Origin: Pseudomonadota bacterium
Lineage (GTDB): Bacteria > Pseudomonadota > Alphaproteobacteria > Rhizobiales > Pleomorphomonadaceae
NCBI GenBank assembly: GCA_023436885.1
Contig: JAEZHI010000038.1
Coordinates: forward strand, 1 to 24,000
Reading direction: 5' to 3'
DNA length: 24,000 bases
The position numbers and the translations under genes were made by a program. Below are positions 3,261 to 17,443 of the stretch, piece after piece (the stretch's first letter is position 1; the number at the start of each line of letters is the position of its first letter). Under the pieces are notes generated by a model. The model searched no databases, had not been told where the DNA came from, and saw only the letters and a program-made list of their open reading frames with translations.

Positions 3261-3992
3261 CTAGAAACGTACCAGGAGATAGGCGGGTTCCTGAGTATCG
3301 ACCCCGGCGATTGTGAAGCCGGCCGCAAGAGCTGCCTCCATTTCCCTGCGAACTCTCAAACGCTCTGCATTGGCGGTATCAGGATCGGTCCTGATCAGCC
3401 TGGCGAAATCGGACGGCAGGGCAATTCGGCGCGCAAGGGCTGTCTCATCCCTCGTCAGCATGGCCTCGCCCGATCGGCAGCGGGCATAGCGATCACCATC
3501 GAGCACCCAGTCAACCAGAAGCCGATCGGACGCTGTTCCTGCGTTGATGCCCCCCATCTCCCCATAATAGTCGCGATGGTAGGTTGAAGCCGTGGCTCCA
3601 AGACGAGCGATGTTGAGAGCGGCATTCGGAAGACGCAACGGATCATAGGTCCAGCGCACATGCCGGATACCGCGTTGAAGGCACCATTCTGCCTGATAGA
3701 GCTTCAGTTTGAGACCAAGCCCCAGACCTCTCGCTTCGACACGCACCGCCAGGCGGTGCGAGTGCTGCACGCCCGGCGTGACCGTTGGAAAGGCGAAAAC
3801 ATAGCCAATCAGACGGTCACCGAGAAAAGCGCCGGCAGCTAGGCCACCTTCCGCCTGGATGACCATCATCAGGTCGCCGGGATCGATCTTGTCGTCTGGC
3901 CCCCAAACATCGCGTTGAAGATCCTCCGCAGCGTGGAATTCGCTCATGCCCACGAGGTCGCGGATAATCGGCTGCGTTTCGGCGGGATTCAT
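3261..3992 (-). CDS. GNAT-fold acyl-CoA N-acyltransferase, possible N-succinyl/N-acetyl transferase partner of the upstream racemase-like enzyme
   Basis: 243 aa. The acyl-CoA binding motif-A-like segment is HRLAVRVEARGLGLGLKLKLYQAEW (R-x-x-G-x-G). Its ATG overlaps the stop of the upstream enolase-superfamily gene (ATGA, 3989-3992), which implies translational coupling. The acyl donor and acceptor cannot be read from the sequence. Confidence 0.65.
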   Translation of the reverse strand: MNPAETQPIIRDLVGMSEFHAAEDLQRDVWGPDDKIDPGDLMMVIQAEGGLAAGAFLGDRLIGYVFAFPTVTPGVQHSHRLAVRVEARGLGLGLKLKLYQAEWCLQRGIRHVRWTYDPLRLPNAALNIARLGATASTYHRDYYGEMGGINAGTASDRLLVDWVLDGDRYARCRSGEAMLTRDETALARRIALPSDFARLIRTDPDTANAERLRVRREMEAALAAGFTIAGVDTQEPAYLLVRF

Positions 3993-5107
3993 GTCGAGAA
4001 AGTCCTGACCGAGCGTGTGACGCCATCCAAGGCATCGCGATCAAGGTGAACGCCGATTCCAGATCCATCAGGCACCGGCATGCGCCCATCGATTGTCTCC
4101 AGCTTCTCGACGATGATATCGCGGTGGAAATAGCGACTTGCCGACGAAGTATCGCCGGGTTTCCGGAAGTTGGGCAGCGTCGAGAGATGGATATTGTGGG
4201 CGCGTCCGATACCCGATTCGAGCATCCCTCCGCACCAGACAGGAACATCAAAGGCAGCCGCAATGTCGTGGACCCGGATCGCTTCGGCGATGCCACCCAC
4301 CCGACCGACCTTGATATTGATGACGCGTGTCGCGTCAGCCTGGAGAGCCCTCCGAGCGTGGCCAACGCTTCGGATGCTTTCATCGAGACAGATCGGCGTC
4401 TTGAGCCGGCTCTGCAGCCGCGCATGGTCGACGATATCGTCGTGAGCGAGCGGTTGCTCAATGTATTCGAGATGGAAGTCATCAAGCCGGCCGAGTACCG
4501 CCCAATCCGAAAGGCGATAGGCGCTGTTGGCGTCGACCGAGAGCTTGATGGTAGGGAAGGATCGCCGCACCGCTTCCAAAAGCTCAATGTCATGTCCCGG
4601 CATGATCTTGAGCTTGATGCGCTTGTAGCCTTGCGCCACATGGCTCTCCACACGCCCAAGCGTCCCGTCGATCGCACCGATGCCCAGCGAGACACCGACG
4701 TCGACCGCATCGCCAGAGCCACCGATCAACGTCTTGAGCGGGAGATCTAGCCATTTGGCCCAAAGATCCCAAAAGGCCATTTCCACCGTGGCAAGTGCCA
4801 TGCGATTGCCACGCCAAGGCGAAAGCAACCTCTCTACCGCCGCTGGATTGTCGAAAGACCGCCCCATCATGGACGGCAGAATTGTCTCGCCGATCAGATC
4901 TATGGCACCCGCGATCGTCTCCTCAAGGAAGTCCGGCAACGGATCCATGACACCCTCGGCATAGCCCTCAAGCCCACCCGCGGACAATGTCACCAGCGGA
5001 AAGACGCGCTCGGTCATGGTGCCGGTCGAGATCGTGAAGGGATTGATGAGCGGCAACCTGACGAGCCTCAACTCGGCACGCTCAATAGGCGGAAGTGGAC
5101 GCGGCAT
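3989..5107 (-). CDS. Enolase-superfamily enzyme of the o-succinylbenzoate synthase / N-acyl(succinyl)amino acid racemase (MenC/NSAR) family
   Basis: KxK catalytic motif (YKRIKLKIMPG). Metal-ligand motifs SVDANSAY, EYIEQPL and CLDESI. Second catalytic Lys in INIKVGRVGG. C-terminal CGGMLESGIG. The track ORF starts at TTG 5164, but ATG 5107 (MPRPLPPIERAEL) is preceded by GGAGG with an 8-nt spacer and gives a family-typical length of about 372 aa. Confidence 0.85.
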   Translation of the reverse strand: MPRPLPPIERAELRLVRLPLINPFTISTGTMTERVFPLVTLSAGGLEGYAEGVMDPLPDFLEETIAGAIDLIGETILPSMMGRSFDNPAAVERLLSPWRGNRMALATVEMAFWDLWAKWLDLPLKTLIGGSGDAVDVGVSLGIGAIDGTLGRVESHVAQGYKRIKLKIMPGHDIELLEAVRRSFPTIKLSVDANSAYRLSDWAVLGRLDDFHLEYIEQPLAHDDIVDHARLQSRLKTPICLDESIRSVGHARRALQADATRVINIKVGRVGGIAEAIRVHDIAAAFDVPVWCGGMLESGIGRAHNIHLSTLPNFRKPGDTSSASRYFHRDIIVEKLETIDGRMPVPDGSGIGVHLDRDALDGVTRSVRTFST

Positions 5108-5167
5108 CGGCAGAACCTCCGGGAAGTGATCACGAACGGTAGGCTCCTGCAAGTTTCTTTGCAAGAT

Positions 5168-5191
5168 TGACAGCCGGCAATTTCCCTGTCA
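5168..5191. promoter_or_regulatory. Inverted repeat TGACAG-N12-CTGTCA in the divergent intergenic region (candidate operator)
   Basis: TGACAG (5168-5173) and CTGTCA (5186-5191) are exact reverse complements. They lie between the minus-strand racemase-like start (5107) and the plus-strand RpiR start (5215). With only 6-bp arms, the statistical support is modest. Confidence 0.3.
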
Positions 5192-5214
5192 GCGTCCATC
5201 TAAACACCGGAGAG

Positions 5215-6186
5215 ATGGGCGTGAAGGAATCGCGTGGCGCAAAGGAAACGTCGGGATCGGGCGCGGACCTTCGGCGCCGGATCGAAGAAAGCCTTGCTTC
5301 AGCCACCCACACCGAAGCAGCCATCGCCAGCTTCTTCCTGAGTGACCTTTCCAGCCTGCCCTTCGAAACAGCCGGATCGATTGCTCGCCGTATCGGCGTG
5401 TCGGAAGCCTCGGTCGGCCGCTATTGTCGCGCCATTGGCTTTCGTCATTTCAAGGACCTGAAGGGATCGCTCCGGATGGACCTTGGCGACCGCGCCTTTC
5501 TGATCGGCGACCGGCTGCGCGACTTTGCCGAGCGCAGCCGTGGCGGGGAGAGTCGCGCTCTCGAAAAGGAAATCGCGGCCATCGTTGCCAATCATGAGCT
5601 GGCGGCGACCCCGGCTTTTCGCGATGTGGCAGCGCGGCTTGCCCATGCCAAGACGGTGTTTGTCGCCGGCTTTCAGACGGAACGCGGCCATGCCCAGTAT
5701 CTGGCACACGGGCTTTCCTATCTTCGACCCGGCGTGCATTTGATGGATACAGCCGACGGCACTTTCGCCGACCTCCTGCTTGATACGCCGTCGGAGGCCG
5801 CACTGGTCATCATCGACGGCCGGCGCTATTCGCGACTCGCACGCCACCTGGGCATCGCGGCCCGGACAGCCGGCGCACATGTGACGCTGATTACTGACCC
5901 CTATTGCACCTGGGGTCGCGAAGCCGCAGACGAAATGTTCGCCGTTCGCACCGATTTCGATCAGTTCTGGGATGCAACGTCAGCCATGGCCAGCCTGATC
6001 GGGCTGCTGGTCAACGCAGTCTTCGGCGAGCTCGGACCTGCGGTTGAGGCCCGGCTCAGTGCGGTTTCAGCTCTCTATGGTGACTTTATCGGTCATACCG
6101 CCGCAGGTGGAAAAAGCATGGATCGGCCCGTGCGACGAATCACCCCAGTTCGCCCGCGCCGAAAGACCGAAACACCGCATCGATAG
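5215..6186 (+). CDS. RpiR/MurR-family transcriptional regulator (N-terminal HTH plus C-terminal SIS domain)
   Basis: The HTH region is ETAGSIARRIGVSEASVGRYCRAIGFRHFKDLK. A SIS-like body follows (TVFVAGFQTERGHAQYLAHGL...LVIIDGRRYS). The track ORF starts at TTG 5167. ATG 5215 is chosen because it leaves a family-typical N-terminal length and is preceded by GGAGAG, though the spacing is short. The start is uncertain. Confidence 0.85.
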   Translation: MGVKESRGAKETSGSGADLRRRIEESLASATHTEAAIASFFLSDLSSLPFETAGSIARRIGVSEASVGRYCRAIGFRHFKDLKGSLRMDLGDRAFLIGDRLRDFAERSRGGESRALEKEIAAIVANHELAATPAFRDVAARLAHAKTVFVAGFQTERGHAQYLAHGLSYLRPGVHLMDTADGTFADLLLDTPSEAALVIIDGRRYSRLARHLGIAARTAGAHVTLITDPYCTWGREAADEMFAVRTDFDQFWDATSAMASLIGLLVNAVFGELGPAVEARLSAVSALYGDFIGHTAAGGKSMDRPVRRITPVRPRRKTETPHR

Positions 6187-6224
6187 CGCCATTGGGTTGC
6201 TGGCCGGGCTCGCCAAAAGCAAAT

Positions 6225-6251
6225 GCGCCCGGATCCTGACGGATCGGGCGC
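6225..6251. terminator. Strong hairpin between convergent genes (probable bidirectional terminator)
   Basis: GCGCCCGGATCC (6225-6236), loop TGAC, then GGATCGGGCGC (6241-6251), giving 11 pairs with one bulged G. An A/T-rich run CCAATATTTAAG follows on the plus strand, and GCATTTGCTTTTGG follows on the minus strand. It lies 39 nt after the RpiR stop and 35 nt after the small minus-strand ORF stop. Confidence 0.5.
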
Positions 6252-6285
6252 CAATATTTAAGTCATCAGCCGAAGATCAAGCGTA

Positions 6286-6429
6286 TCAGAGACCGGCAAC
6301 TCGGCTGCTGCCAGCGCGGACATACTGACGCTCGCGGAATTCCGAACCGAAACCGCGCACGTAGCTCGTACCCCGCTCGACGGCGCGCGACTCGCGGAAC
6401 GTCTTGTTGAGGGCAGCCTGGGCGAACAT
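6286..6429 (-). CDS. Small basic hypothetical protein (47 aa)
   Basis: MFAQAALNKTFRESRAVERGTSYVRGFGSEFRERQYVRAGSSRVAGL. The ATG at 6429 is preceded by AGGAAAGGAAACCGAA, a strong Shine-Dalgarno with about 6-nt spacing. By my hand count about three quarters of third codon positions are G/C, which matches real genes in this window. I recognise no family. The track ORF (6286-6489) extends further upstream. Confidence 0.4.
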   Translation of the reverse strand: MFAQAALNKTFRESRAVERGTSYVRGFGSEFRERQYVRAGSSRVAGL

Positions 6430-6779
6430 TTCGGTTTCCTTTCCTGATGACAAACGGTCATATCCGATGCCGCTCATATAGGCCACCATTGCCTTATACG
6501 AAAGTCGTAATCAGTGAAGGCGGGCCAAAGAAAATCTGAAACCGGCGTTAGCTTATCCTTTACCCTTTCGATGAAGCGCAAGGTGGCGCCCCGAACGGCT
6601 GGACTCATCTTTCGCCCTCAAAATGGCGGCGCCAATTGGAAGAACGGGCTTTCAAGACCGACGGCCATCGGTAACCCTCCGGCTGGACAAGGCATTGTTT
6701 ATCTCGCTTGATGCGCCAAATCATGGTCGCATCGGCCTGAGCGGCCTATCATGGATGCGTCCGAAAACGAGGAACCGCC

Positions 6780-8318
6780 ATGACCGAGACGCTGAGCCAG
6801 CTGCGCAGGATCGCGCAGAACCCCACTCTGAGCTTCAAGCAGAAGGAACATGCGCTGGCGGTCGAGGCCGAGAACATGCTTCCCTATGTGCTGCTCGATG
6901 CCGAGACCCGTGCAGCACTCGATGCGCGCATCATCTGCGACATGTACGAGGGCAACGCGCCCTACAAGCCGCGATATGTGCTGCCTGATTACGAAGCTGT
7001 TCTCAAAAGCGGTTCGGCCCATCTCGAGCTGCCGAAGCCGGAAACGCTCGATGAGGCAATCAACACGCTGCAGATTGCCTATCACCATGTTCCCTCGGTG
7101 ACGGGCATGCCGGTGTTCATCGGCCATCTCGATGCGCTGTTGCTGCCCTTCTGCGACGGCGTTTCAGATGATGAGCTCTATCGCAAGATCAAGCTGTTCT
7201 GGCGCTATATCGACCGCGTTTTGCCGGACGCCTTCCTGCACGCCGACATCGGTCCCACCGACAATCGCGTTGCCCGGGCCATTCTGAGGGTCGACGCCGA
7301 GCTGAAGCAGATCGCCCCCAACCTCACCTTCCTTTACGATCCCGAGATCAGCGGCGAAGCCATTCTGCGTCTTTGCACCGACAACATCATCGCTTGCTCG
7401 AAACCGCATATCGCCAACCACCCTATTCACCGCGAGGTGTTCGATGACCCCGGTTATGCGATCGTCAGCTGCTACAACGCCTTGCCGCTCAGGGGCGGGG
7501 CTGCCTCGCTGGCTCGCATCAACCTGAAGAAGGTTGCCGAGGCGAGCGCCAGCGAAACCGATTTCCTCGACGCCCAACTGCCACACTACGTCAAGCTCAA
7601 TGCCCGCCTGATGCGCGCCCGCATCGACTACCTGTTCCGTCAGTCCGGATTCTTCGAGAACAACTTCCTGGTCGAAGAAGGCTGGATCGACAAGGATCGC
7701 TTCACGGCGATGTTCGGCATCTTTGCGATGGCCGAGGCAGTCAATCATCTGCAGGACCTGGCCGGCCGAGCCGGGCGCTACGGACATGACGCCAACGCCA
7801 ACGCACTCGGCCACCGCATTTCGGCGCGCCTCGCCGGACTCGTCGAGCGCGAACCGATGGAGCACGTCTGGCGCGGGGGTGCCATGCTGCACGCCCAGGC
7901 CGGCCTTTCCAGCGATGCCGGCACCACGCCGGGCGTGCGCATTCCCTATGGCAGCGAGCCTGATCCGGTGAGCCATGTGCAGGCCCTCTTGCCGCACCAC
8001 CGGTACTATCTCTCCGGCGTCTCGGAGATTCTCACCCTCGACGAAACGGTGCGGGGCAATCCGGAAGCGGTGTTCCAGCTCGCCAAAGGCGCCTTGCAGC
8101 TCGGCTTCCGCGAGTTCACCGCCAATGTCAGCGGCAACGATCTGGTGCGCGTGACCGGCTTCATGGTTCGGCTCTCCGACATCAAACTCTACAACGAGGC
8201 AAAAGGATCGCGCGTCAACACCACCGCGCTCGGCGCCGAGGCAGCTGGAACGGTGCACATTCTCGATCGCAAGCCGCGTGTCGTCGGGCTGGAACTGATG
8301 GCGGGTTCAGGTGCCTGA
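6780..8318 (+). CDS. YjjI-type (DUF3029-like) glycyl radical enzyme, substrate unknown
   Basis: 512 aa. The C-terminal glycyl-radical fingerprint is NDLVRVTGFMVRLSD, with the candidate radical Gly at residue 460 (GGC 8157-8159), 52 residues from the C-terminus. The RBS GAGGAA lies upstream of the ATG. The stop overlaps the start of a glycyl-radical activase gene by 8 nt. The family call is from memory of the E. coli YjjI/YjjW pair (similar size and the same partner) and was not aligned. Confidence 0.75.
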   Translation: MTETLSQLRRIAQNPTLSFKQKEHALAVEAENMLPYVLLDAETRAALDARIICDMYEGNAPYKPRYVLPDYEAVLKSGSAHLELPKPETLDEAINTLQIAYHHVPSVTGMPVFIGHLDALLLPFCDGVSDDELYRKIKLFWRYIDRVLPDAFLHADIGPTDNRVARAILRVDAELKQIAPNLTFLYDPEISGEAILRLCTDNIIACSKPHIANHPIHREVFDDPGYAIVSCYNALPLRGGAASLARINLKKVAEASASETDFLDAQLPHYVKLNARLMRARIDYLFRQSGFFENNFLVEEGWIDKDRFTAMFGIFAMAEAVNHLQDLAGRAGRYGHDANANALGHRISARLAGLVEREPMEHVWRGGAMLHAQAGLSSDAGTTPGVRIPYGSEPDPVSHVQALLPHHRYYLSGVSEILTLDETVRGNPEAVFQLAKGALQLGFREFTANVSGNDLVRVTGFMVRLSDIKLYNEAKGSRVNTTALGAEAAGTVHILDRKPRVVGLELMAGSGA

Positions 8319-9180
8319 CGGCGTGGTCGCCGTCAGCAAATTCCTGACCTGGTCGGTGGTCGACGGGCCGGGAAACCGCTTCGTGCTGTTCCTGCAGGGG
8401 TGCAATTTCCGTTGCGTGACCTGCCACAACCCACACACCATCGGCATCTGCAACGACTGCGGCAGCTGCGTTGCCGTATGTCCGTCGGGCGCCCTGACCA
8501 AGACCGGACGCAAGGTCGTCCACGACCCGGCCCCTTGCATTTCCTGCGATAGTTGCCTTGCCGCCTGCCCGACACGCGCCAATCCCATGGTGCGGCGGAT
8601 GACGGTCGCAGATATCCTCGATCTCCTCCGCCGCAACGGAGCCTTTCTCAATGGCCTTACCGTGTCGGGCGGCGAGGCAACGATCCATCTCGAATTTCTG
8701 ATCGACCTCTTCAAGGCGGTTCGGGCCGCACCCGATCTATCGCACCTCACCCTCTTCATCGACAGCAACGGCCATTTGCCGGCCGAGGATTGGCAGAGAA
8801 TACTCCCCCTGACCGATGGCGTGATGCTGGATATCAAGGCTTTCGATCCCGAACGCCACCGCCGTCTCACCGGCGCTGACAATACACTCTCGATTGCTTC
8901 GGCCAGATTGCTGGCGGCAGCCGGCAAACTCTATGAGCTGCGCTTCTTGATGATTCCCGGCGAGACCGATCGTTCCGAAGAAATTGCGGCGCTCGCGGCA
9001 ATGGCGAACGAACTCGGTGTGGACACCCGGCTCCGTCTCAATGCTTTCCAGCACCACGGCGTCCGCGGCGCGGCTGCGACGTGGGCGGCAATGCCACGCG
9101 AAGGCGTCGAGACGGCTGCTGCGACGCTCAAGGCTGCGGGCATAAGTGAGGTGGCGGTGCCTTCGGTCTGGTTACCCTGA
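8311..9180 (+). CDS. Glycyl-radical enzyme activating protein (radical SAM, YjjW-type with a ferredoxin-like insert)
   Basis: GPGNRFVLFLQGCNFRCVTCHNP carries the CX3CX2C radical-SAM cluster motif (8401-8424). Two further Cys clusters follow, CNDCGSCVAVCP and CISCDSCLAACP. The SAM-binding motif SGGEAT is present. The GTG start at 8311 overlaps the upstream stop (GTGCCTGA). An alternative GTG lies at 8323. Confidence 0.9.
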   Translation: MPDGVVAVSKFLTWSVVDGPGNRFVLFLQGCNFRCVTCHNPHTIGICNDCGSCVAVCPSGALTKTGRKVVHDPAPCISCDSCLAACPTRANPMVRRMTVADILDLLRRNGAFLNGLTVSGGEATIHLEFLIDLFKAVRAAPDLSHLTLFIDSNGHLPAEDWQRILPLTDGVMLDIKAFDPERHRRLTGADNTLSIASARLLAAAGKLYELRFLMIPGETDRSEEIAALAAMANELGVDTRLRLNAFQHHGVRGAAATWAAMPREGVETAAATLKAAGISEVAVPSVWLP

Positions 9181-9319
9181 GACGGAAAGTTCCCACTCGA
9201 TCCGCCATCGTCAATTGGCGGGACTCAATGAACTCTATGTCGGGCGTCGAATTTCCTTCGCCCACCGGCTTGCTCATGTTCGGCACAATGACGCCGTTCA
9301 CCTGAGGAGCCGCCCGACC

Positions 9320-10837
9320 ATGTTGATGCACCATCTTCTTTATCGCGCTGCCGAGCGCGCACCAGACGCTGTTGCGCTCAACTGGGTGGACCGCAACTTG
9401 GCTCTCACCGCCGCCGAGGCAGTGGATGGGATGGAGAGGATGGCGGGTGCACTGGCGTATCTCGGCGTCGCGCCCGGCGACCGGGTGCTTGTCTTCGCTC
9501 ATAACGGCATGGACTATCTGCTTGCCATGCTGGGAACCTGGCGGCTCGGCGCTATATCGGCGTTGGTCAACGTCAAATATGCAGACGACCTTGCCTATTA
9601 CGTCGACGACCATCGCCCCAAGGCAATCATCTACACTCATGACATGGAGAAGCCCGTAAAGGCTGCGGCCGCCGCCGTGGGATGCGTCGCGCACCTCATC
9701 TGCATGGATGGCCCGCAGGAAGGCGCCCATGCGTTGCCCGAACTTTTATCGGCTCGCTTCGCACCGCCGATGGATCCCGAAGACGCCACCGCCATCGCCC
9801 ACCTGTCCTACACCTCCGGCACGACGGGCAAACCCAAGGGCGCCTGCCTCGCTCACGAACCGACGGTCACTGCCGCACGCTGTATCGGCGAGCGGTTGCG
9901 CATCCGCGCCGCCGATCGCTCTTTCGGGCCGACGGCCTTGTCGAGCTCCTATCAACTGGTCGCCAATCTGCTGCCACCGATGGCAGCGGGCGCCACCGTC
10001 AACGTCATGGGCAAATGGACCCAGGCGACCGGCTGGGAGGCTCTCGAGCGAACCGGCGCTACGTTTTTCGTCGGCAATCCGGTCGTGCTGACCGAACTTC
10101 TTGAGGAATCTCAGGCACGCGGCCGGCTGCCATCGCCGCTGCGCTTCGGCCTTTCCGGCGGTGGGCCGGTGCCTCCAACCCTGCGGAAGGCATTCCGCGA
10201 CGTGCTGAAGCTGCCGCTGGTCGAGAGTTTCGGTCAGAGCGAGATTGGCGGTTTCTTCGCCCTCGGTTTTCCCGAACTCGAAACCGACGACAGCAAGCTT
10301 GTCCGTGTCGGCCCCGGCACGCCAGACAAGGAAGTGGCCATCCTCACAACAGCGGGAACCAGAGCACCCATCGGAACGGTGGGTGAAATCTGCCTGAGAG
10401 GCGGCTTCATGGCTGGCTACTGGGGCCGGCCCGAGAAAACCGCCGAGGCAACACGCGGCGGCTGGCTGCACTCCGGAGATCTCGGAAGCATCGATGCCGA
10501 TGGGTATGTCACGATGCGTGGCCGCCTCGCCGAACTGGTCACAGTGGAAGGGATCGACTGGTTCCCTCGCGATGTTGAGGAAGCTCTTGCCGCCCAACCC
10601 GGCGTGCTGCTGGCCGCATTGGTCGGCGTGCCCAATCCCAAGGGTGGCAACACACCGATCGCCTTCATAACCGAACGCCCGGGCGCAACGGTCGATGTCG
10701 CGGCGCTCAAGGCCGCCATCGCGCCGCTCGTCTCTTACGATGTGGCACCTCTGATCATCCGCAAGGCGACAAGCCTGCCCATGACGCCAACCGGCAAGAT
10801 CGCCAAGGCCACCCTTGCCGCCGAAGCCGCAGCGTGA
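9320..10837 (+). CDS. Adenylate-forming acyl-CoA synthetase / AMP-dependent ligase (ANL superfamily)
   Basis: AMP-binding core motif LSYTSGTTGKPKG, then GQSEIGG, GWLHSGDLG and the C-terminal catalytic Lys region PMTPTGKIAK. The track ORF begins at 9146, but ATG 9320 (MLMHHLLYRAAERAPDAVAL) follows GAGGAG with a 10-nt spacer and matches the usual family N-terminus. Confidence 0.9.
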   Translation: MLMHHLLYRAAERAPDAVALNWVDRNLALTAAEAVDGMERMAGALAYLGVAPGDRVLVFAHNGMDYLLAMLGTWRLGAISALVNVKYADDLAYYVDDHRPKAIIYTHDMEKPVKAAAAAVGCVAHLICMDGPQEGAHALPELLSARFAPPMDPEDATAIAHLSYTSGTTGKPKGACLAHEPTVTAARCIGERLRIRAADRSFGPTALSSSYQLVANLLPPMAAGATVNVMGKWTQATGWEALERTGATFFVGNPVVLTELLEESQARGRLPSPLRFGLSGGGPVPPTLRKAFRDVLKLPLVESFGQSEIGGFFALGFPELETDDSKLVRVGPGTPDKEVAILTTAGTRAPIGTVGEICLRGGFMAGYWGRPEKTAEATRGGWLHSGDLGSIDADGYVTMRGRLAELVTVEGIDWFPRDVEEALAAQPGVLLAALVGVPNPKGGNTPIAFITERPGATVDVAALKAAIAPLVSYDVAPLIIRKATSLPMTPTGKIAKATLAAEAAA

Positions 10838-11655
10838 GTGACGACATGACCTCCTTTTCCTGGTGGAACCTCTCCACCGCGGACTTCGCGGGCCGCGATC
10901 TGTCAAGAACAGTGGTCGTACTGCCCGTCGGAGCAATCGAACAACACGGCCCACATTTGCCGGTCAGCGTCGACGCAGCGATCAACGCCGGCGTACTGGC
11001 CGATGCACTGACGAAGCTTGCTGCCGACACTGACGTTCTGGTCCTGCCTCCCCTGCCCTATGGCAAATCCGACGAGCACATCGCTTTCCCGGGAACGATT
11101 GCCGTCACAGGCGAAACGCTGGCGCGCATCTGGTTCGAAATCGCCGAAAGCGTCCACCGGGCCGGTGTCCACAAGCTGGTCTTCTTCAATGCCCATGGCG
11201 GCCAGATCGCCCTGATCGACATCGTCTGCCGCGAAATTCGCGTGAAGCTCGGCATGCTGGCCGTCGCCTGCTCTTGGTTCCGCATCACCGCCGTCGATGA
11301 CATCATTTCAGCCGCCGAATCGACGCATGGCATCCACGGGGGGGACCTGGAGACCAGTGTCATGCTGCATCTCCATGGCGACCTCGTTGCCATGGAGAAA
11401 GCCGAGGACTTCGTGCCGCTGACCGTCGAGATCGAGGCGTCCGGCAGCCTTTTGACCGCCGAGGGAGCTGTCGGTTTCGGCTGGCAGGCACAGGATCTTC
11501 ACCCCTGTGGCGTCGCAGGAAATGCCAGGATCGCCACAGCCGAAAAAGGACGGATCATCGTCGACCGCGCCGGATCGGCTTTCGTCGCCTTGCTTGGGGA
11601 TGTTGCAGGCTTCGATCTCGACCGATTGACGAGGCGCACGGCGTTTTCTCAATGA
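10834..11655 (+). CDS. Creatininase-family metal-dependent amidohydrolase
   Basis: LPVGAIEQHGPHLPVSVD, PYGKSDEHIAFPGTI, FFNAHGGQ and HGGDLETSVML match the creatininase-fold signature segments (the family of creatinine amidohydrolase, ArfB and MftE). The GTG at 10834 overlaps the ligase stop (GTGA). An alternative ATG lies at 10846. Confidence 0.85.
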   Translation: MSDDMTSFSWWNLSTADFAGRDLSRTVVVLPVGAIEQHGPHLPVSVDAAINAGVLADALTKLAADTDVLVLPPLPYGKSDEHIAFPGTIAVTGETLARIWFEIAESVHRAGVHKLVFFNAHGGQIALIDIVCREIRVKLGMLAVACSWFRITAVDDIISAAESTHGIHGGDLETSVMLHLHGDLVAMEKAEDFVPLTVEIEASGSLLTAEGAVGFGWQAQDLHPCGVAGNARIATAEKGRIIVDRAGSAFVALLGDVAGFDLDRLTRRTAFSQ

Positions 11656-11659
11656 TCCC

Positions 11660-12445
11660 TCAGGCTTTCGCAGCAAGCCGCCTCAACCGGCGGCGGCGAT
11701 AGGCCTCGCTCAGGCCAACGAGTACCGCCGTCAAGACCAGAACGACGACCTGCATGGCATTGAGATCGGGTCTGAGCTCCCGCCGGAATTCGGAGGCCAC
11801 CATCAGCGACAGCGGTTGTGTTCGGCCGGCGAGAAACATCGCGATGGTCAGATCAGCCAGCGACAGGATGACACCCACCGAATAGGCGCCCGACAAAGCC
11901 GGCCTGATCTGCGGCAGCAACACGCGCAGGAATGCCTGCCATGGCGAAGCGCCGAGATCGCGCGCCGCTTCGATCAGACGACGGTCGAATCGGATCATGA
12001 CCGCCGATATCAAGGCGGTGGCAAAGGGAAGCGCCACCAGCGATTGGGCGAGAATCAACGCCGTCGCCCCGCGCTCGAAGCCGATGCGACTCATGATCAT
12101 CGCCTGTGCGATCGACAGGACACTCTTCGGAACCAGAAATGGGACGAGCAACAGCACCGCAAAGAGGCCGCGCCAACGAAACCCAGGCGCTGTCAGGGCA
12201 AGCGAAGCCATCAGGCCGAACAGCATGGCGAGGATGCCAACCGGCTGGGAAATCAGGAACGACGTGACGAAGCCCTTGAGGAAATTCTCGTTCTGCGCCA
12301 GCTCGCGATACCATTCGAGCGTGAAGCCTGACAGCGGGAACGCCATTAGGGCCGAATCGTTGAAGGAAAACACGGCGAGCACGACGAGCGGCAGATAGAG
12401 AAATCCTGCCGCGATGATGAGCACGGAAAGACTGGACCGTCCCAT
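11660..12445 (-). CDS. ABC transporter permease (PotC/PotI-like, binding-protein-dependent inner-membrane component)
   Basis: About 261 aa and multi-pass hydrophobic. The EAA-type loop is LIEAARDLGASPWQAFLRVLLPQIRPAL. The ATG at 12445 overlaps the upstream permease stop (TGATG). The track uses TTG 12448. Confidence 0.9.
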   Translation of the reverse strand: MGRSSLSVLIIAAGFLYLPLVVLAVFSFNDSALMAFPLSGFTLEWYRELAQNENFLKGFVTSFLISQPVGILAMLFGLMASLALTAPGFRWRGLFAVLLLVPFLVPKSVLSIAQAMIMSRIGFERGATALILAQSLVALPFATALISAVMIRFDRRLIEAARDLGASPWQAFLRVLLPQIRPALSGAYSVGVILSLADLTIAMFLAGRTQPLSLMVASEFRRELRPDLNAMQVVVLVLTAVLVGLSEAYRRRRLRRLAAKA

Positions 12446-13305
12446 CAAACCCTCCCCATCACGGCGCGCGCACCTTTAAAGCGCAGCAGCAATCCGGCCA
12501 TCGCCGACGCCACGAGGAACAATGTTGCGAGCAGAGCCAAGGCCAGAGCCGAAGCGAGCGGCCAGTCGAAGGCCGTTCCGAACAGATTGTCAACGAGCGC
12601 CATGGCCGTGGAACCCGACGTGCCGCCCAGAAGGCTAGGCGTCAGCATCTCACCTGCGGACAGGGCAAAAACCGTGAGGCTGCCGGCGGCAAGGCCGGGG
12701 GTGGTGAGTGGGAAAACGACACGGGAAAAGGCATCGACCGGTCGCGCGCCCAGATCGCGTGCCGCCTCGATCAGCCGTCGATCGATCATTTCGGCCGATA
12801 CCCAGATGGCGAGCACCATGAAGGGCAGATTGTTGTAGGTGAGGACGAGGCCGATGGTAAAGGGCGAAAACAACAGGAATTTCAATGGTTCATCAATAAG
12901 GCCTAATCCCTGGAGTATCGAGTTGATAAGGCCCTCTCCGCCCAGCACCATACGCCAGGCGTAGATGCGCACGATCTCGCCAGTGTAGAGCGGTGTCAGC
13001 AGTACGATGATGGCGAGCCCCTTTCCCGAGGCTGCAAGGCGCGTCAACGCCAGCGCTACCGGGTAGCCGAGAAAGGCCGTGAACATCGTGGTTGCAACAC
13101 CCGAAAGCACGGCCTTGCCAATCAGGAACCAGTCAGTCGAAGAGGCGAACAGCTCTCCCCATGCCCTGAATGAAAAGGCCGGGACCAGCTCGAAATCTTC
13201 CACCTCGTAAAAGCTGAAAGCAACGAGAACGGCGAGTGGCGCAAGACATCCCGCCACGATCGCCGCCGCAACCGGCAGCGCAAGATGGCGCTGGCGGAAG
13301 ATCAT
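12445..13305 (-). CDS. ABC transporter permease (PotB/PotH-like)
   Basis: 286 aa and hydrophobic. The EAA loop is LIEAARDLGARPVDAFSRVVFPLTTPGL. The ATG at 13305 overlaps the ATPase stop (ATGA). Confidence 0.9.
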   Translation of the reverse strand: MIFRQRHLALPVAAAIVAGCLAPLAVLVAFSFYEVEDFELVPAFSFRAWGELFASSTDWFLIGKAVLSGVATTMFTAFLGYPVALALTRLAASGKGLAIIVLLTPLYTGEIVRIYAWRMVLGGEGLINSILQGLGLIDEPLKFLLFSPFTIGLVLTYNNLPFMVLAIWVSAEMIDRRLIEAARDLGARPVDAFSRVVFPLTTPGLAAGSLTVFALSAGEMLTPSLLGGTSGSTAMALVDNLFGTAFDWPLASALALALLATLFLVASAMAGLLLRFKGARAVMGRV

Positions 13306-14396
13306 GAGACAACCCTTGTGATGAAGCCGCGGCCGGCATCAAACCAGAGAGCCACCGGCGAGCCTGGCGAATAGAGCGTTTCGGCAGCGAAGCGCAGGGG
13401 CAATCCGGACACGTCGGCCTCGATCATGCTGCGCTCGCCCTGGAAAACACAGTTGCTGACCGTTCCGCTGAAGGTCGCCGTCCCGTCCCCTCGCGTCGAC
13501 AACAGCTCGGGTCGGATTACCAACACTGCGGTATCGCCGCTGACGAGCCCATCGGCAACGGGTGCGGTAATCGCTCCAAGCGCCGTTTCGATGGTCGCCT
13601 CGTCACCGAGGCGCTGCAGGATCTTGCCCTCGACCAAGGTAGAGTTGCCGATGAAGTCAGCGACGAAGCTGTCAGCGGGACGGCTATAGATGGTCTGCGG
13701 GTCTGCCTTCTGAGCGATATGTCCCTTGTTCATCACCACCACAATATCGGACAGTGCAAAGGCTTCCTCCTGATCGTGCGTCACATAGACGAAGGCAATA
13801 CCCAGGCGGCGCTGCAGGGCTTTCAGCTCGATCTGCAAATGCGCGCGCATCTTGCGATCGAGAGCGGACAAGGGTTCGTCCAAAAGAAGAAGCCGCGGCT
13901 CGGCGATGATCGACCGCGCGACGGCGACACGCTGTTGCTGCCCGCCGGAGAGCTGATGCGGAAAGCGGTCACCGAAATCAGCCATATGCACAGCGTCGAG
14001 AGCGCGGCGCACGCGTGCTGATAAGTCGGAGACGCCGCCCCTGAGCTTTAGCGCGAAGGCGACATTCTCGTTGACCGTGAGATGGGGGAAGAGAGCATAC
14101 GATTGAAAGACGGTGTTGACGGGACGACGCTCGGGCGGAACGCCGGCGAGCGGCGTGTTGTCGAGCAGCATATCACCGGCATTCGGCGTCTCGAAACCGG
14201 CGATCATCCGGAGAACCGTCGTCTTGCCGCACCCTGACGGCCCGAGCAAGGTCAGGAAGGCACGTTCGGGAACATCGAGATCGATGCCATCCACCGCCGT
14301 CGCGCGACCGAATTTCTTGACGACACCTCGCATGGCAAGAAGCAGCGGCGACAATGCCGGCTCCGTCCGCTTTTGAATACCGCTATCCACCACCAT
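13302..14396 (-). CDS. ABC transporter ATP-binding protein (PotA/PotG-like, with C-terminal regulatory/TOBE-like extension)
   Basis: Walker A GPSGCGKTT, Q-loop FQSYALFPH, signature LSGGQQQRVAVAR, Walker B LLLLDEP and H-loop VTHDQ. The first ATG is at 14396. The track starts one codon earlier at TTG 14399. Confidence 0.92.
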   Translation of the reverse strand: MVVDSGIQKRTEPALSPLLLAMRGVVKKFGRATAVDGIDLDVPERAFLTLLGPSGCGKTTVLRMIAGFETPNAGDMLLDNTPLAGVPPERRPVNTVFQSYALFPHLTVNENVAFALKLRGGVSDLSARVRRALDAVHMADFGDRFPHQLSGGQQQRVAVARSIIAEPRLLLLDEPLSALDRKMRAHLQIELKALQRRLGIAFVYVTHDQEEAFALSDIVVVMNKGHIAQKADPQTIYSRPADSFVADFIGNSTLVEGKILQRLGDEATIETALGAITAPVADGLVSGDTAVLVIRPELLSTRGDGTATFSGTVSNCVFQGERSMIEADVSGLPLRFAAETLYSPGSPVALWFDAGRGFITRVVS

Positions 14397-14411
14397 CAAT
14401 GCCCCGGTTTC

Positions 14412-14481
14412 CGAGGTCGGACTTGCGAAGCCCGACCTCGTTCGACAAGCAAACTCCGCACCGCCCGGCCAGGACCGGGCG
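14412..14481. repeat. Two intercistronic GC-rich palindromic hairpins between the binding-protein gene and the ATPase gene
   Basis: Hairpin 1 is CGAGGTCGG (14412-14420) pairing with CCGACCTCG (14432-14440), around an internally palindromic loop A-CTTGCGAAG-C. Hairpin 2 is CGCCCGG (14462-14468) pairing with CCGGGCG (14475-14481), with loop CCAGGA. No T-tract follows either one on the coding (minus) strand. Confidence 0.6.
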
Positions 14482-14495
14482 ATGCGAGCGGCAGA

Positions 14496-15578
14496 TCAAG
14501 CAGCCTTGACCTCGTTCCAGACCTTCAGCCACTCCGAATAATTGTCCGGCGCAACCGGCCACATGAAGTTCTGCATGACCGAGAGATCATCAACGAAGAT
14601 CGCCTCCTGCTTCTCGTGGCTGAGCTTGTCGCGGATAATCGACGAGGTCGTCGCGTAGTTGCCGATCTCGGCGATGGTTGAGGCATAATCGGCGCCAAGC
14701 AGATAGTCGGCGAATTTGTAGGCGATTTCCACCTTCTCGTCCGGCAAGCTGGCCGGAATGCCGAAGCAATCGCACCAACCCATGATGCCGGCCTTTGGCT
14801 TGGCCATCGCCACCTTCATCTTGTCCTTCAAGGCGTCATAGGGCACACGCCAGGAGAAGGCGGCCGTCACCTCGCCAGTGGCGAAGAGATTGGTCAGATC
14901 GCCGATGGTCTGCCAGTAAGTCCTGAGAAGCGGCTTCTGGGCGATCAACGCCTTCTTGACCTCAGCCAGCTCATCGGATGTCAGTAGGAAGGCACGCTCG
15001 CGCGGAATGCCGATGTGCAGGGCGCCAATGGCGATTGATTCCAGCGCGTAGTCGCGCATGGCAAGCTGACCTTTGAACTTCGGGTCGAACAGCGTCGAGT
15101 AGGTCGGCTCTTCGGTATAGATGTCGGACCGGTAGACGATGGGGTTGAGACCCCAGAGATAGGGAATGGCGTATGTCGCGCCGTCTTCGCCCTTCACCTT
15201 CGGCGTCGTCTTGAACACATCATACATGTGCGCAACGTTCGGAACCTTGGAGAGATCGAGCGGCTTCAGTACCTTGGCCTTGATGTACCGCCAGGCACCG
15301 TTCAAAGAGGGATTGACGATGTCCCAGTCGGAAGCCGAACCGGTCTTCAGCGCCGCGAACTGGGCATCTTCGCTGGACAGGAAGGACAGCTTCACCTTGG
15401 TGCCGGTCGCCTTCTCGAACGCCGCGACATATTCGGGATGACCGTTTGAATCCCAGGTTGCCCAGACAATCTCGGAGACGGCCGCCGAGGCCCGCCCCAT
15501 CGGCCCAAGGAGCGAAAGTCCTGCGCCGGCTGCCAATCCCCCGAGCATCTGGCGACGGTTGAGTATGAAACGCTGCAT
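14496..15578 (-). CDS. Periplasmic substrate-binding protein of a PotD/PotF-type (polyamine/opine-like) ABC importer
   Basis: About 360 aa from MQRFILNRRQMLGGLAAGAGLSLLGPMGRASA (signal peptide with an RR motif, ending ASA). It is the first gene of a four-gene minus-strand transporter operon. ATG 15578 is preceded by GAGAGGGG. The upstream 28 codons of the track ORF are probably not translated. The ligand cannot be inferred from the sequence. Confidence 0.85.
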   Translation of the reverse strand: MQRFILNRRQMLGGLAAGAGLSLLGPMGRASAAVSEIVWATWDSNGHPEYVAAFEKATGTKVKLSFLSSEDAQFAALKTGSASDWDIVNPSLNGAWRYIKAKVLKPLDLSKVPNVAHMYDVFKTTPKVKGEDGATYAIPYLWGLNPIVYRSDIYTEEPTYSTLFDPKFKGQLAMRDYALESIAIGALHIGIPRERAFLLTSDELAEVKKALIAQKPLLRTYWQTIGDLTNLFATGEVTAAFSWRVPYDALKDKMKVAMAKPKAGIMGWCDCFGIPASLPDEKVEIAYKFADYLLGADYASTIAEIGNYATTSSIIRDKLSHEKQEAIFVDDLSVMQNFMWPVAPDNYSEWLKVWNEVKAA

Positions 15579-15767
15579 GTGAGACCCCTCTCGCTTGCGG
15601 AAAACAGTCCTGTTCCCTTTTATTTTGGGAAAGTCTGCCTTGGGCCTCCGGGCACCGTCCATATGGCGGTCACAATAGACACTATAGGCACATGCCTAGG
15701 CCGGGTGCTTATGCATGCCGAGAATCTCGACTAAGATCGCTTATGCTGATCAATCAAATGGACCGCC

Positions 15768-16256
15768 ATGCCGCTTCCCGATCTCGACCATGCCATATAT
15801 CTCCGTCGCACCTTTGCCATTGCGGCAGAGACAGCGAAGAACGGAAGTCACCCGTTCGGCGCTCTTCTGGTGAGCGGCGACGGCACGATCCTGATGGAAC
15901 AGGGCAACGCCTATCTGCCCGATCACGACATGACTGGCCACGCCGAGCGTGTGGTCGCAACCCGTGCATCGCAGCGCTTTCAGCCAGCCGAACTTGTCAA
16001 CGCGACGCTCTACTCGTCGGCTGAACCCTGTGCGATGTGTGCTGGCGCTGCCTATTGGGCAGGCATCGGCCGTATTGTTTATGGCCTTTCGGAAAACACG
16101 CTGAAGCAGATCACCGGCAATCATCCGGAGAACCCGACGCTTGACCTGCCCTGCCGGATCGTTCTGGAAAGTGGCCAGCGCCCGGTGGAAGTCGTTGGCC
16201 CACTGCTTGAAGAAGAAGCTGCAGAACTCCACCGATCGTTTTGGGCACAGCGTTGA
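15768..16256 (+). CDS. Zinc-dependent nucleoside/nucleobase deaminase (CMP/dCMP deaminase fold; guanine-deaminase/TadA-like)
   Basis: 162 aa. The zinc-binding motifs HAE (MTGHAERVV) and PCxxC (SAEPCAMCAGA) have the typical spacing. Confidence 0.85.
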   Translation: MPLPDLDHAIYLRRTFAIAAETAKNGSHPFGALLVSGDGTILMEQGNAYLPDHDMTGHAERVVATRASQRFQPAELVNATLYSSAEPCAMCAGAAYWAGIGRIVYGLSENTLKQITGNHPENPTLDLPCRIVLESGQRPVEVVGPLLEEEAAELHRSFWAQR

Positions 16257-16262
16257 GCGGGC

Positions 16263-17234
16263 TTACTCGGCAGCCACAGGAAACATTTGCGGCACAGCTT
16301 CGCTGGACCATTTCAAGTCGGCAACTGCAGCCTTCACCAAATGGCGGAACCATGTGTGGGCCGGGGAATGGTGCTTGCAATCGTGCCAGAGCAGATAAAA
16401 ATCCATCAATCCAAACTCTGCTGGCGCATTAATGACAGCAAAGTCCCCCTGGTCAGCGATCCGCTCGGCGAAGGGTGCTCCGGTGGTGAAAACCAAATCG
16501 GAACCTGCCAGCATATGCGGAACAATGGCGTATTCCGGCACCGAGGCGGCGATATGCCGGCTAAGACCGAGCTCCATCAAACGGCCGTCGATTGGGCTGT
16601 ACTGCTTCATGACGTCAGCCGACGGAGAAAGATGTCGCTCGGACAGATATAGATCCATGCCCAGCGAGCCTATGGTCTTCGCAAGCCGATGATTGGCAGC
16701 GACAACGCACTTGATCGGCGTCGATAACAGCGGCGCCAAACGCAACTGCTCAGGCGGCCGCGGCCAATTTCCGACAACAAGATCAAGCGAGCCATCCGCG
16801 AGATGAGCCATCAGCTCATCATGGCCGGGAAGCGTTGCCACATCGATTGACGCCTTTGGCGCCTCCTCGGCAAGTCGCGCAAAGATTCGCGGCAGAAAAG
16901 CAGCATCGAGACAATTGGCAGCGGCTATGCGAAAGCGCCGCTCCGTGCGCAATGGGTCAAAACTGGGCGGCGGCGCCAGTATCGCGTCGATATCGGCCAG
17001 CAACCGCTGCAGCGCGGCTCGCAGTTCCAAGCCACGCTCGGTCGGTACGAGAGCCCCACCCGAACGAACCAGAATCGGATCACCGATCAGCTCGCGCAGC
17101 CGCTTCAGAGCCAGACTGACCGTCGGTTGCGTCTGACCCAGGATTTCGGCAGTACGAGACACACTGCATTCCGTGACGAGCAGCAGCAGGGTCCGCATCA
17201 GGCGGACATCGAGGGCACCATTGACGGGCTCCAT
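16263..17234 (-). CDS. LysR-family transcriptional regulator
   Basis: 323 aa. The N-terminal winged HTH is LDVRLMRTLLLLVTECSVSRTAEILGQTQPTVSLALKRLRE, followed by a LysR substrate-binding body. ATG at 17234. Confidence 0.9.
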   Translation of the reverse strand: MEPVNGALDVRLMRTLLLLVTECSVSRTAEILGQTQPTVSLALKRLRELIGDPILVRSGGALVPTERGLELRAALQRLLADIDAILAPPPSFDPLRTERRFRIAAANCLDAAFLPRIFARLAEEAPKASIDVATLPGHDELMAHLADGSLDLVVGNWPRPPEQLRLAPLLSTPIKCVVAANHRLAKTIGSLGMDLYLSERHLSPSADVMKQYSPIDGRLMELGLSRHIAASVPEYAIVPHMLAGSDLVFTTGAPFAERIADQGDFAVINAPAEFGLMDFYLLWHDCKHHSPAHTWFRHLVKAAVADLKWSSEAVPQMFPVAAE

Positions 17235-17353
17235 AAGCGCTCGATCCTCAAATCCGGTACGGTTACGCTAAGAGCAAAGCACCAAACGTGCCAAGCCGAG
17301 CGCAAAACGTCGCAGGACCGAGCGCCAGTGGTGAGAAGACTAAATCAGGAAAA

Positions 17354-17443
17354 TGGCGGAGAGGGAGGGATTTGAACCCCCGATACCCTTGCGAGTATGC
17401 CGCATTTCGAGTGCGGTGCAATCGACCACTCTGCCACCTCTCC
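17354..17443 (-). tRNA. tRNA-Ser (anticodon CGA), class II with a long variable arm, encoded CCA end
   Basis: The minus strand reads GGAGAGG-TG-GCA-GAGTGGTCGAT-TGC-A-CCGCA-CTCGAAA-TGCGG-CATACTCGCAAGGGTATC-GGGGG-TTCAAAT-CCCTC-CCTCTCC-G-CCA. It has a 7-bp acceptor stem, a 3-bp D stem, a 5-bp anticodon stem with loop CU-CGA-AA, an 18-nt variable arm and a T-loop TTCAAAT. Total length 90 nt. Confidence 0.95.

Follow-up and report, generated by a model that had tools for sequence, protein, structure and literature searches.

The stretch of DNA analysed here (the window; positions 1 to 24,000 of contig JAEZHI010000038.1, assembly GCA_023436885.1, from an alphaproteobacterium of the Pleomorphomonadaceae) carries two overlapping genes, yjjI and yjjW. 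Judging from their sequences, the open reading frames (ORFs) at 6780-8318 and 8311-9180 encode a full-length YjjI-family glycyl radical enzyme (GRE) and its own YjjW activase. We consider it very probable that the segment 6667-9181 is a self-contained yjjI-yjjW module, in which enzyme and activase work by a radical relay like that of pyruvate formate-lyase (PFL). The pair is a typical, intact copy of a known and automatically annotated family, and the source databases already name close relatives “YjjI family glycine radical enzyme”. The coordinates of the pair, its motifs and its neighbours are collected in Table 1.

The family assignment comes from profile hidden Markov models (HMMs). YjjI scores 682.7 bits against TIGR04040 (curated cut-off 498.3, E = 2.5e-205, model positions 2-497 of 497) and 661.3 bits against PF11230, the YjjI-like model formerly called DUF3029 (cut-off 23, E = 8.5e-199, model positions 1-485 of 485), while YjjW matches TIGR04041 over its full length with 344 bits (cut-off 250.2, E = 6.2e-103). 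The next best models for YjjW are the activases of PFL, HypD, CutC, BssD and NrdG, each far under its own cut-off (45.6-66.3 bits on the NrdG models, with cut-offs of 126-131). YjjI has a local match to the PFL-like domain PF02901 below the cut-off (15.1 bits against 24.3, residues 162-254) and no match to PF01228 in Pfam, nor does it match NRDD (PF13597) or the NCBIfam models of the class III ribonucleotide reductase NrdD at E <= 0.01. The initial annotation of this DNA, made from the letters alone, had proposed a short YjjI-type enzyme with a YjjW-type activase and no assigned substrate. The HMM searches, with both curated TIGR models exceeded, bear out the family; the protein is indeed approximately 250-300 residues shorter than the PFL-like enzymes; and a preprint of August 2026 still speaks of an “uncharacterized putative GRE”. 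Its reading of the genes also holds, that is, a 512-residue protein with Gly460 inside LVRVTGFMVRL, 52 residues before the C-terminus, an 8-nucleotide (nt) overlap between the yjjI stop codon (TGA, 8316-8318) and the yjjW start codon (GTG at 8311), and an activase with one CX3CX2C motif and two ferredoxin-like cysteine clusters, all of which lie at the positions that it had given. In the literature up to August 2026, we found no biochemical characterisation of YjjI, YjjW, DUF3029, TIGR04040 or PF11230. The sole experimental support for a radical in any YjjI is the labelling of Gly465 of Escherichia coli YjjI in vivo by a radical-trapping probe, reported in the August 2026 preprint.

Table 1. 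Features of the yjjI-yjjW module and of the surrounding DNA (positions in the window)
Feature	Position	Strand	Remarks
Conserved yjjI upstream segment, probable promoter and 5' untranslated region	6667..6779	+	homology resumes at 6666/6667
yjjI	6780..8318	+	512-aa YjjI-family GRE, ATG start
Cys53 codon (ICDMYEG motif)	6936..6938	+	second invariant cysteine
Cys231 codon (VSCYN)	7470..7472	+	predicted thiyl-radical cysteine, Cys finger loop
Gly460 codon GGC (RVTGF)	8157..8159	+	predicted glycyl radical site
yjjW	8311..9180	+	289-aa radical-SAM (S-adenosylmethionine) activase, long form, GTG start
CX3CX2C radical-SAM cluster motif, CNFRCVTC, C31/C35/C38 of YjjW	8401..8424	+	read from sequence
Two ferredoxin-like CX2CX2CX3C motifs of YjjW	8449..8568	+	motif scan
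Accessory block, outside the yjjIW system	9182..17347		8.2 kb, yjjW stop codon to tRNA-Ser
tRNA-Ser(CGA), right edge of the accessory block	17354..17443	-	ARAGORN; Rfam RF00005, 57.7 bits
GNAT acetyltransferase overlapping an enolase-superfamily protein	3261-5164	-	TIGR01928, 330 bits (OSBS/N-succinylamino-acid-racemase type)
RpiR/SIS regulator, divergent from the GNAT/enolase genes	5167-6186	+	SapR-like, under the SapR model cut-off
Small ORF, 47-67 aa, between the RpiR gene and yjjI	6286-6489	-	no Pfam match

The residues expected of a GRE are among the most conserved of the protein. In an alignment of 80 YjjI sequences from the Alphaproteobacteria, Gammaproteobacteria, Actinomycetota and Trueperaceae, 78 of the 512 columns are invariant, including R457, T459 and G460 at the glycine loop, S230, C231, Y232 and N233 at the cysteine loop, and C53, D54, E57 and G58 in the family motif I-C-D-M-[YF]-E-G (all 80/80). 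Cys53 and Cys231 are the only invariant cysteines; Cys206 is replaced by Thr in 16 sequences, and Cys125 and Cys199 are variable. The initial annotation had named two candidates for the thiyl-radical cysteine, one in AIVSCYNALPL and one in IIACSKPH: the former, Cys231, stands, whereas the latter is the replaceable Cys206, and Cys53 was not among them. In PFL, Cys419 is the cysteine that is common to all GREs. When the YjjI HMM was aligned to E. coli PflB with filters off, YaivsC fell on YAIACC and VRVTGY on IRVSGY, equating Ser230-Cys231 with PFL Cys418-Cys419 and Gly460 with PFL Gly734; such HMM-to-sequence alignments are usable at the cysteine and glycine loops only, and there they agree with the sub-threshold Pfam match and with the structure model described below. 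Cys231 can be assigned as the predicted thiyl-radical cysteine of YjjI, equivalent to PFL Cys419. The residue that follows the radical glycine is Tyr in 68 of the sequences and Phe in 12, and Phe occurs only in the window, in ten loci of the Pleomorphomonas clade (L001-L008, L013 and L043) and in Oryzibacter (L011).

By sequence, no solved structure was found for YjjI, even at E <= 10, and the fold was approached with an AlphaFold2 model based on an alignment of 40 sequences (mean predicted local distance difference test score, pLDDT, 84.3; predicted template-modelling score 0.87). In the model, strands 455-458 and 461-464 make up a hairpin with Gly460 at its tip, and strands 226-229 and 233-236 make up another that has Cys231 at its tip; Cys53 lies on a short strand (52-54) that is followed by a low-confidence loop (57-59). 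In a Foldseek search of the PDB, the best match was T4 NrdD (1h78, E = 2.5e-15, template-modelling (TM) score 0.65), followed by the NrdDs of Prevotella copri and Streptococcus thermophilus. The NrdD matches range from E = 2.5e-15 to about 1e-12 with query-length-normalised TM scores of 0.61-0.67, and YbiW, PFL, PflD, HypD and the diol dehydratases follow with E = 1e-11 to 1e-9 and TM scores of 0.58-0.67; the Foldseek probability is 1.00 for NrdD, PFL, YbiW, PflD and HypD alike. As modelled, YjjI is a ten-stranded alpha/beta GRE barrel whose size and shape are nearest to NrdD. On its sequence, YjjI is nonetheless not an NrdD, because it matches no NrdD model, lacks the C-terminal zinc-ribbon cysteines (there is no Cys in its last 120 residues) and has no NrdG-type activase. 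Disorder is predicted for the C-terminal 34 residues (pLDDT < 50). This tail (residues 479-512, nt 8214-8315) contains L484, R497, R500 and E505, which are invariant or nearly so, and it may serve to dock the activase or to make contacts in a dimer.

In the proposed mechanism, YjjW would cleave SAM at the [4Fe-4S] cluster held by C31, C35 and C38 under reducing, anoxic conditions, with electrons probably relayed through its two auxiliary clusters, and the resulting 5'-deoxyadenosyl radical would remove a hydrogen atom from YjjI at Gly460. The glycyl radical would then be stored on the C-terminal finger loop of a small NrdD-like barrel. In each turnover, it would move reversibly from Gly460 to the opposing finger loop and its Cys231, whose thiyl radical would abstract a hydrogen atom from the substrate. 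O2 would be expected to cut the YjjI chain at Gly460. Both the radical relay and the oxygen sensitivity of YjjI are inferred from PFL and related enzymes.

The activase occurs in two architectures. In the window protein, the radical-SAM region is matched by PF04055 and PF13353, and Fer4_7, Fer4_10 and Fer4 matches span residues 46-90, where the two ferredoxin-like motifs, CNDCGSCVAVC (residues 47-57) and CISCDSCLAAC (residues 76-86), probably bind auxiliary [4Fe-4S] clusters. This long form of approximately 288 aa with both motifs is that of the Proteobacteria and Trueperaceae: 46 of the 47 activases from L001-L046 and L055 (Proteobacteria, one Trueperaceae and one uncultured bacterium) have both, the exception, L035, ending at a contig end. 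Many Actinomycetota have a short form of approximately 231-250 aa without either motif (L047-L054, L056, L058, L059, L061, L062, L069, L070, L072-L075, L077 and L078), encoded approximately 1.5 kb beyond the start of yjjI. The 245-aa YjjW of a Desulfobulbaceae locus (L085) also lacks ferredoxin-like Pfam matches, and some Ilumatobacteraceae proteins (285 aa) have only one strict ferredoxin-like motif. Because short forms without these motifs exist, the auxiliary clusters appear, from the sequences, to be dispensable for activating YjjI.

Among known systems, the E. coli pair is the direct counterpart. YjjI (b4380) and YjjW (b4379) of E. coli align over their full length with the window proteins at 57.8% and 49% identity, respectively, and Gly465 aligns with Gly460. 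Both YjjI proteins have RVTG[YF], VSCYN and ICDM[YF]EG, both YjjW proteins have CX3CX2C and two ferredoxin-like motifs, and in both organisms the two genes overlap. The differences are Phe in the window in place of the Tyr after the glycine, an overlap of 8 nt rather than 29 nt, and different genomic neighbours. The closest solved fold is that of class III ribonucleotide reductase, an enzyme of similar size (534-560 modelled residues) that also shares with YjjI the Cys finger loop and the glycyl radical loop near the C-terminus. The identity between YjjI and NrdD is, however, only 12-14%, the Cys loop reads VSCYN in the former and MGCRSF in the latter, YjjI has neither zinc ribbon nor ATP cone, and the activases belong to different families. 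With PflB and the PFL-like enzymes (YbiW, PflD, HypD and the glycerol/propanediol dehydratases), YjjI has in common the barrel fold and local similarity at the Cys loop (YAIvsC/YAIACC) and the Gly loop (RVTGY/RVSGY), and YjjW resembles PflA. In contrast to these enzymes, YjjI has Ser-Cys in place of the Cys-Cys of PFL, and it lacks C-x-E, which we take to be the motif of the glycyl radical dehydratase/lyase group. By its sequence, YjjI is not itself a PFL, given the sub-threshold PF02901 score, the lack of PF01228, and Ser230-Cys231 in place of Cys418-Cys419.

Of the 79 yjjI loci obtained in a scan of one genome per species, 76 have yjjW directly after yjjI and on the same strand. The exceptions are L065 and L071, where a truncated yjjW start precedes the contig end, and L024, which has only a 126-residue piece of yjjW. 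No other conserved neighbour emerged when all 18 window proteins were compared with the 79 loci by tblastn, nor when neighbouring ORFs were clustered de novo, a clustering that is noisy in high-GC DNA. The neighbours of yjjIW are also unrelated in the Pfam-annotated contigs of Trueperaceae, Hoeflea and Desulfobulbaceae and in a contig of the acI lineage. Because the activase alone is linked to yjjI, the genomic context is no guide to the substrate.

Within Pleomorphomonas, DNA alignment gives 6667-9181 as the conserved unit. On the downstream side lies the accessory block of Table 1, which holds genes for an acyl-CoA ligase (likely start 9320), a creatininase-family hydrolase, a CDA-type deaminase and a LysR regulator, together with a convergent four-gene PotABCD-like ATP-binding cassette (ABC) transporter. 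This arrangement is present in eight Pleomorphomonas loci. Pleomorphomonas oryzae (L013) lacks 9182-17347, its yjjW stop codon being followed by 45 bp and then by the 3' end of tRNA-Ser(CGA), and in a metagenome-assembled genome (MAG; L007) different DNA replaces the block. The block has the look of a catabolic islet next to a tRNA gene, for the use of an amide or N-heterocycle; no integrase was seen inside 9182-17347. On the upstream side, homology between Pleomorphomonas genomes breaks approximately 110 bp before the yjjI ATG. With variable DNA on both sides, the yjjIW cassette is bounded upstream and downstream by recombination-prone junctions.

The conserved upstream block was confirmed in an alignment of 11 yjjI upstream regions, and an AGGA ribosome-binding site precedes the ATG by 8-9 nt. 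In the genus-conserved stretch 6655-6760, ATCATGG occurs twice (at about 6721 and about 6749) together with TTGATGCGCCAAATCA; judged by sequence, the segment with these repeats may be a regulator binding site. Neither a sigma-70 consensus nor an Rfam element was found in the upstream segment, nor a terminator-like site in 6100-9400. A scan of the whole window for the FNR/FixK anaerobox, allowing up to two mismatches, gave 12 matches against 5.7 expected and none upstream of yjjI (6186-6780). In E. coli, by contrast, both genes are tabulated among those that FNR activates, and yjjI shows co-expression with narG; by analogy, both fit an anaerobic use of the enzyme.

The closest loci are all from Pleomorphomonas (Pleomorphomonadaceae, Hyphomicrobiales), so that the “Rhizobiaceae-like chromosome” of the initial annotation has to be corrected. 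YjjI is 94% identical to the proteins of P. carboxyditropha and strain NRK KF1, 93% to that of P. diazotrophica and 92% to that of P. oryzae, and 84% and 83% identical to those of P. koreensis and Oryzibacter, respectively. At the DNA level, the window shares 79-84% identity with the nearest species representatives (approximately 75-76% with P. koreensis and Oryzibacter) and so probably comes from a further Pleomorphomonas species. According to the literature, members of the genus fix N2 and possess [FeFe]-hydrogenases and their maturases; they oxidise CO anaerobically with formation of H2, have been isolated from the deep subsurface under strict anoxia, and have complete denitrification pathways and several hydrogenases, and they grow in air too. 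In other words, the host is a facultative anaerobe, where an O2-labile enzyme is to be expected and needs no special explanation. The earlier argument for a niche-specific function, which started from relatives that are aerobes or microaerobic symbionts, falls with this, and the family is also routine in other Alphaproteobacteria and common in Gammaproteobacteria and Actinomycetota.

YjjI proteins of approximately 70-74% identity occur in Hoeflea, Devosia, Roseibium, many Rhodobacteraceae, Paludibacterium, Woeseiaceae, Xanthomonadales and a Desulfobulbaceae MAG; those of Photobacterium, Shewanella, Providencia and Gilliamella are 54-58% identical, and those of many Actinomycetota and one Trueperaceae MAG 43-49%. 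When 1.84 billion cluster representatives were searched exhaustively, 489 matches were obtained at E <= 1e-3, of which the full-length ones form approximately 25 clusters at 50% identity, and no large GRE is among the best 150 of the 489. These figures describe a compact and well-separated family. The proteins of Paludibacterium (P0010), Desulfobulbaceae (P0024), Woeseiaceae (P0047) and Xanthomonadales (P0089) are 70-74% identical to alphaproteobacterial ones, whereas those of the Enterobacterales and Vibrionales reach only 54-58%. These sequence identities suggest that the two-gene yjjIW cassette has been transferred between classes. The genes are also found in freshwater planktonic Actinobacteria, namely Candidatus Planktophila/Nanopelagicaceae (L059, L061, L062 and L070) and Ilumatobacteraceae (L060, L063, L064 and L066-L068), and the streamlined planktonic hosts include a complete 1.4-Mb chromosome (acI/Nanopelagicales). 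Streamlined freshwater planktonic Actinobacteria are usually regarded as aerobes and are odd hosts for an O2-labile enzyme.

With regard to the substrate, a common metabolite of the cytoplasm seems to us more likely than a niche nutrient, because 78 positions are invariant over four or more phyla and neither a transporter nor a pathway gene is linked. Several points weigh against the module as we read it. The PFL alignments are individually weak (5.6 bits, and 15.1 bits against the cut-off of 24.3); no glycyl radical has been reported by electron paramagnetic resonance for any YjjI in the literature up to August 2026; no anaerobox or other oxygen-responsive site that could be recognised precedes yjjI in the window; the presence of yjjI in freshwater Actinobacteria that are usually deemed aerobic fits poorly with a strictly anoxic role; and the idea of a central metabolite rests on negative evidence only. 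A bolder form of that idea, to which we give a small chance, is that YjjI is a minimal NrdD-like enzyme for a conserved housekeeping reaction on a universal metabolite rather than for niche catabolism. It would explain the extreme conservation, the linkage to the activase alone and the presence in streamlined planktonic Actinobacteria. If true, far more oxic lifestyles than has been assumed make use of glycyl radical chemistry or tolerate it, and the Pleomorphomonas copy is one accessible, culturable representative.

A more specific chemical alternative makes YjjI a minimal relative of class III ribonucleotide reductase with NrdD-like reductive chemistry on a nucleotide, nucleoside or sugar phosphate, in which a hydroxyl group would be removed with formate or a thiol pair and Cys53 and Cys231 would serve as the two active-site cysteines of NrdD. 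The NrdD structures that head the Foldseek list ahead of the PFL-type enzymes point this way, as do an earlier structure prediction that also matched NrdD, a weak precomputed PF13597 (NRDD) match in some family members, the presence of two invariant cysteines, and the position of E. coli yjjI, which is divergent to deoCABD. We nevertheless hold it to be improbable. The deo adjacency is not kept elsewhere, the window protein matches no NRDD/NrdD model at the threshold used and has neither the zinc ribbon nor the ATP cone, and its activase is of the PflA/YjjW and not the NrdG type. An hhalign alignment with E. coli NrdD placed Cys175 of NrdD against a gap rather than against Cys53, although at a probability of 9% this alignment is unreliable. 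YjjI also has Ser or Thr where NrdD has an Asn 21 residues beyond its catalytic Cys, taken to be the conserved Asn311 of T4.

That yjjIW is instead the first half of a catabolic operon, continued by the downstream ligase, creatininase-family amidohydrolase and ABC transporter, with YjjI acting by radical chemistry on an amide or N-heterocycle taken up from outside, seems to us a very remote prospect. The 8.2-kb block, with its own LysR gene, is missing in P. oryzae and replaced in L007; its genes accompany yjjIW in none of the approximately 65 loci outside the genus and in none of the annotated contigs; and homology breaks exactly at the yjjW stop codon. In favour of the operon stand the common strand, the mere 139 nt from the yjjW stop codon to the likely ligase start at 9320, the lack of a terminator-like site noted above, the 4-nt overlap of the ligase and creatininase genes and the recurrence of the arrangement in eight Pleomorphomonas loci. 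It is scarcely credible that yjjIW survives in this host only as a decaying or functionless remnant, as might be read from the lack of a recognisable promoter or anaerobox upstream and from the highly variable flanking DNA: both ORFs are intact, all 78 family-invariant residues of YjjI and all 11 cluster cysteines of YjjW are kept, the upstream 110 nt are conserved, and between species YjjI is 92-94% identical with DNA at approximately 84%, which indicates purifying selection.

The reading of yjjI-yjjW as a self-contained GRE-activase module matters chiefly at the level of the family. YjjI/YjjW are among the last GRE families without a known reaction, although present even in E. coli, and assigning their chemistry would be of real interest; the Pleomorphomonas window adds no handle on function. 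What the whole family gains is the assignment of Cys231, the invariant Cys53, class III ribonucleotide reductase as the nearest solved fold, and the finding that the activase is the only linked gene.

Two further sets of observations concern the neighbourhood. In two actinobacterial loci (L061, from the acI lineage, and L059), pst-phoU and the genes of a PhoR/PhoB-like two-component system directly precede yjjIW. A functional link with pst-phoU-phoRB, considered for L061, was rejected as a general feature since the adjacency recurs only in its closest relative, L059. Upstream in the window, the genes for the RpiR regulator, the enolase of N-succinylamino-acid racemase/o-succinylbenzoate synthase (NSAR/OSBS) type and the GNAT protein lie at variable distance from yjjI or are absent, depending on the genome. 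The pairing of a GNAT protein with a racemase recalls the N-succinylamino-acid racemase route from D- to L-amino acids. A second variable junction is seen at 6571-6666 and at the matching positions in L001, L002, L007 and L013, and in different Pleomorphomonas genomes the RpiR gene and yjjI are separated by unrelated DNA of 0.1 to 4 kb, or the upstream DNA is another altogether. The segment with the small ORF (6286-6489) is kept in L001 and L007, on the yjjI side of their insertions.

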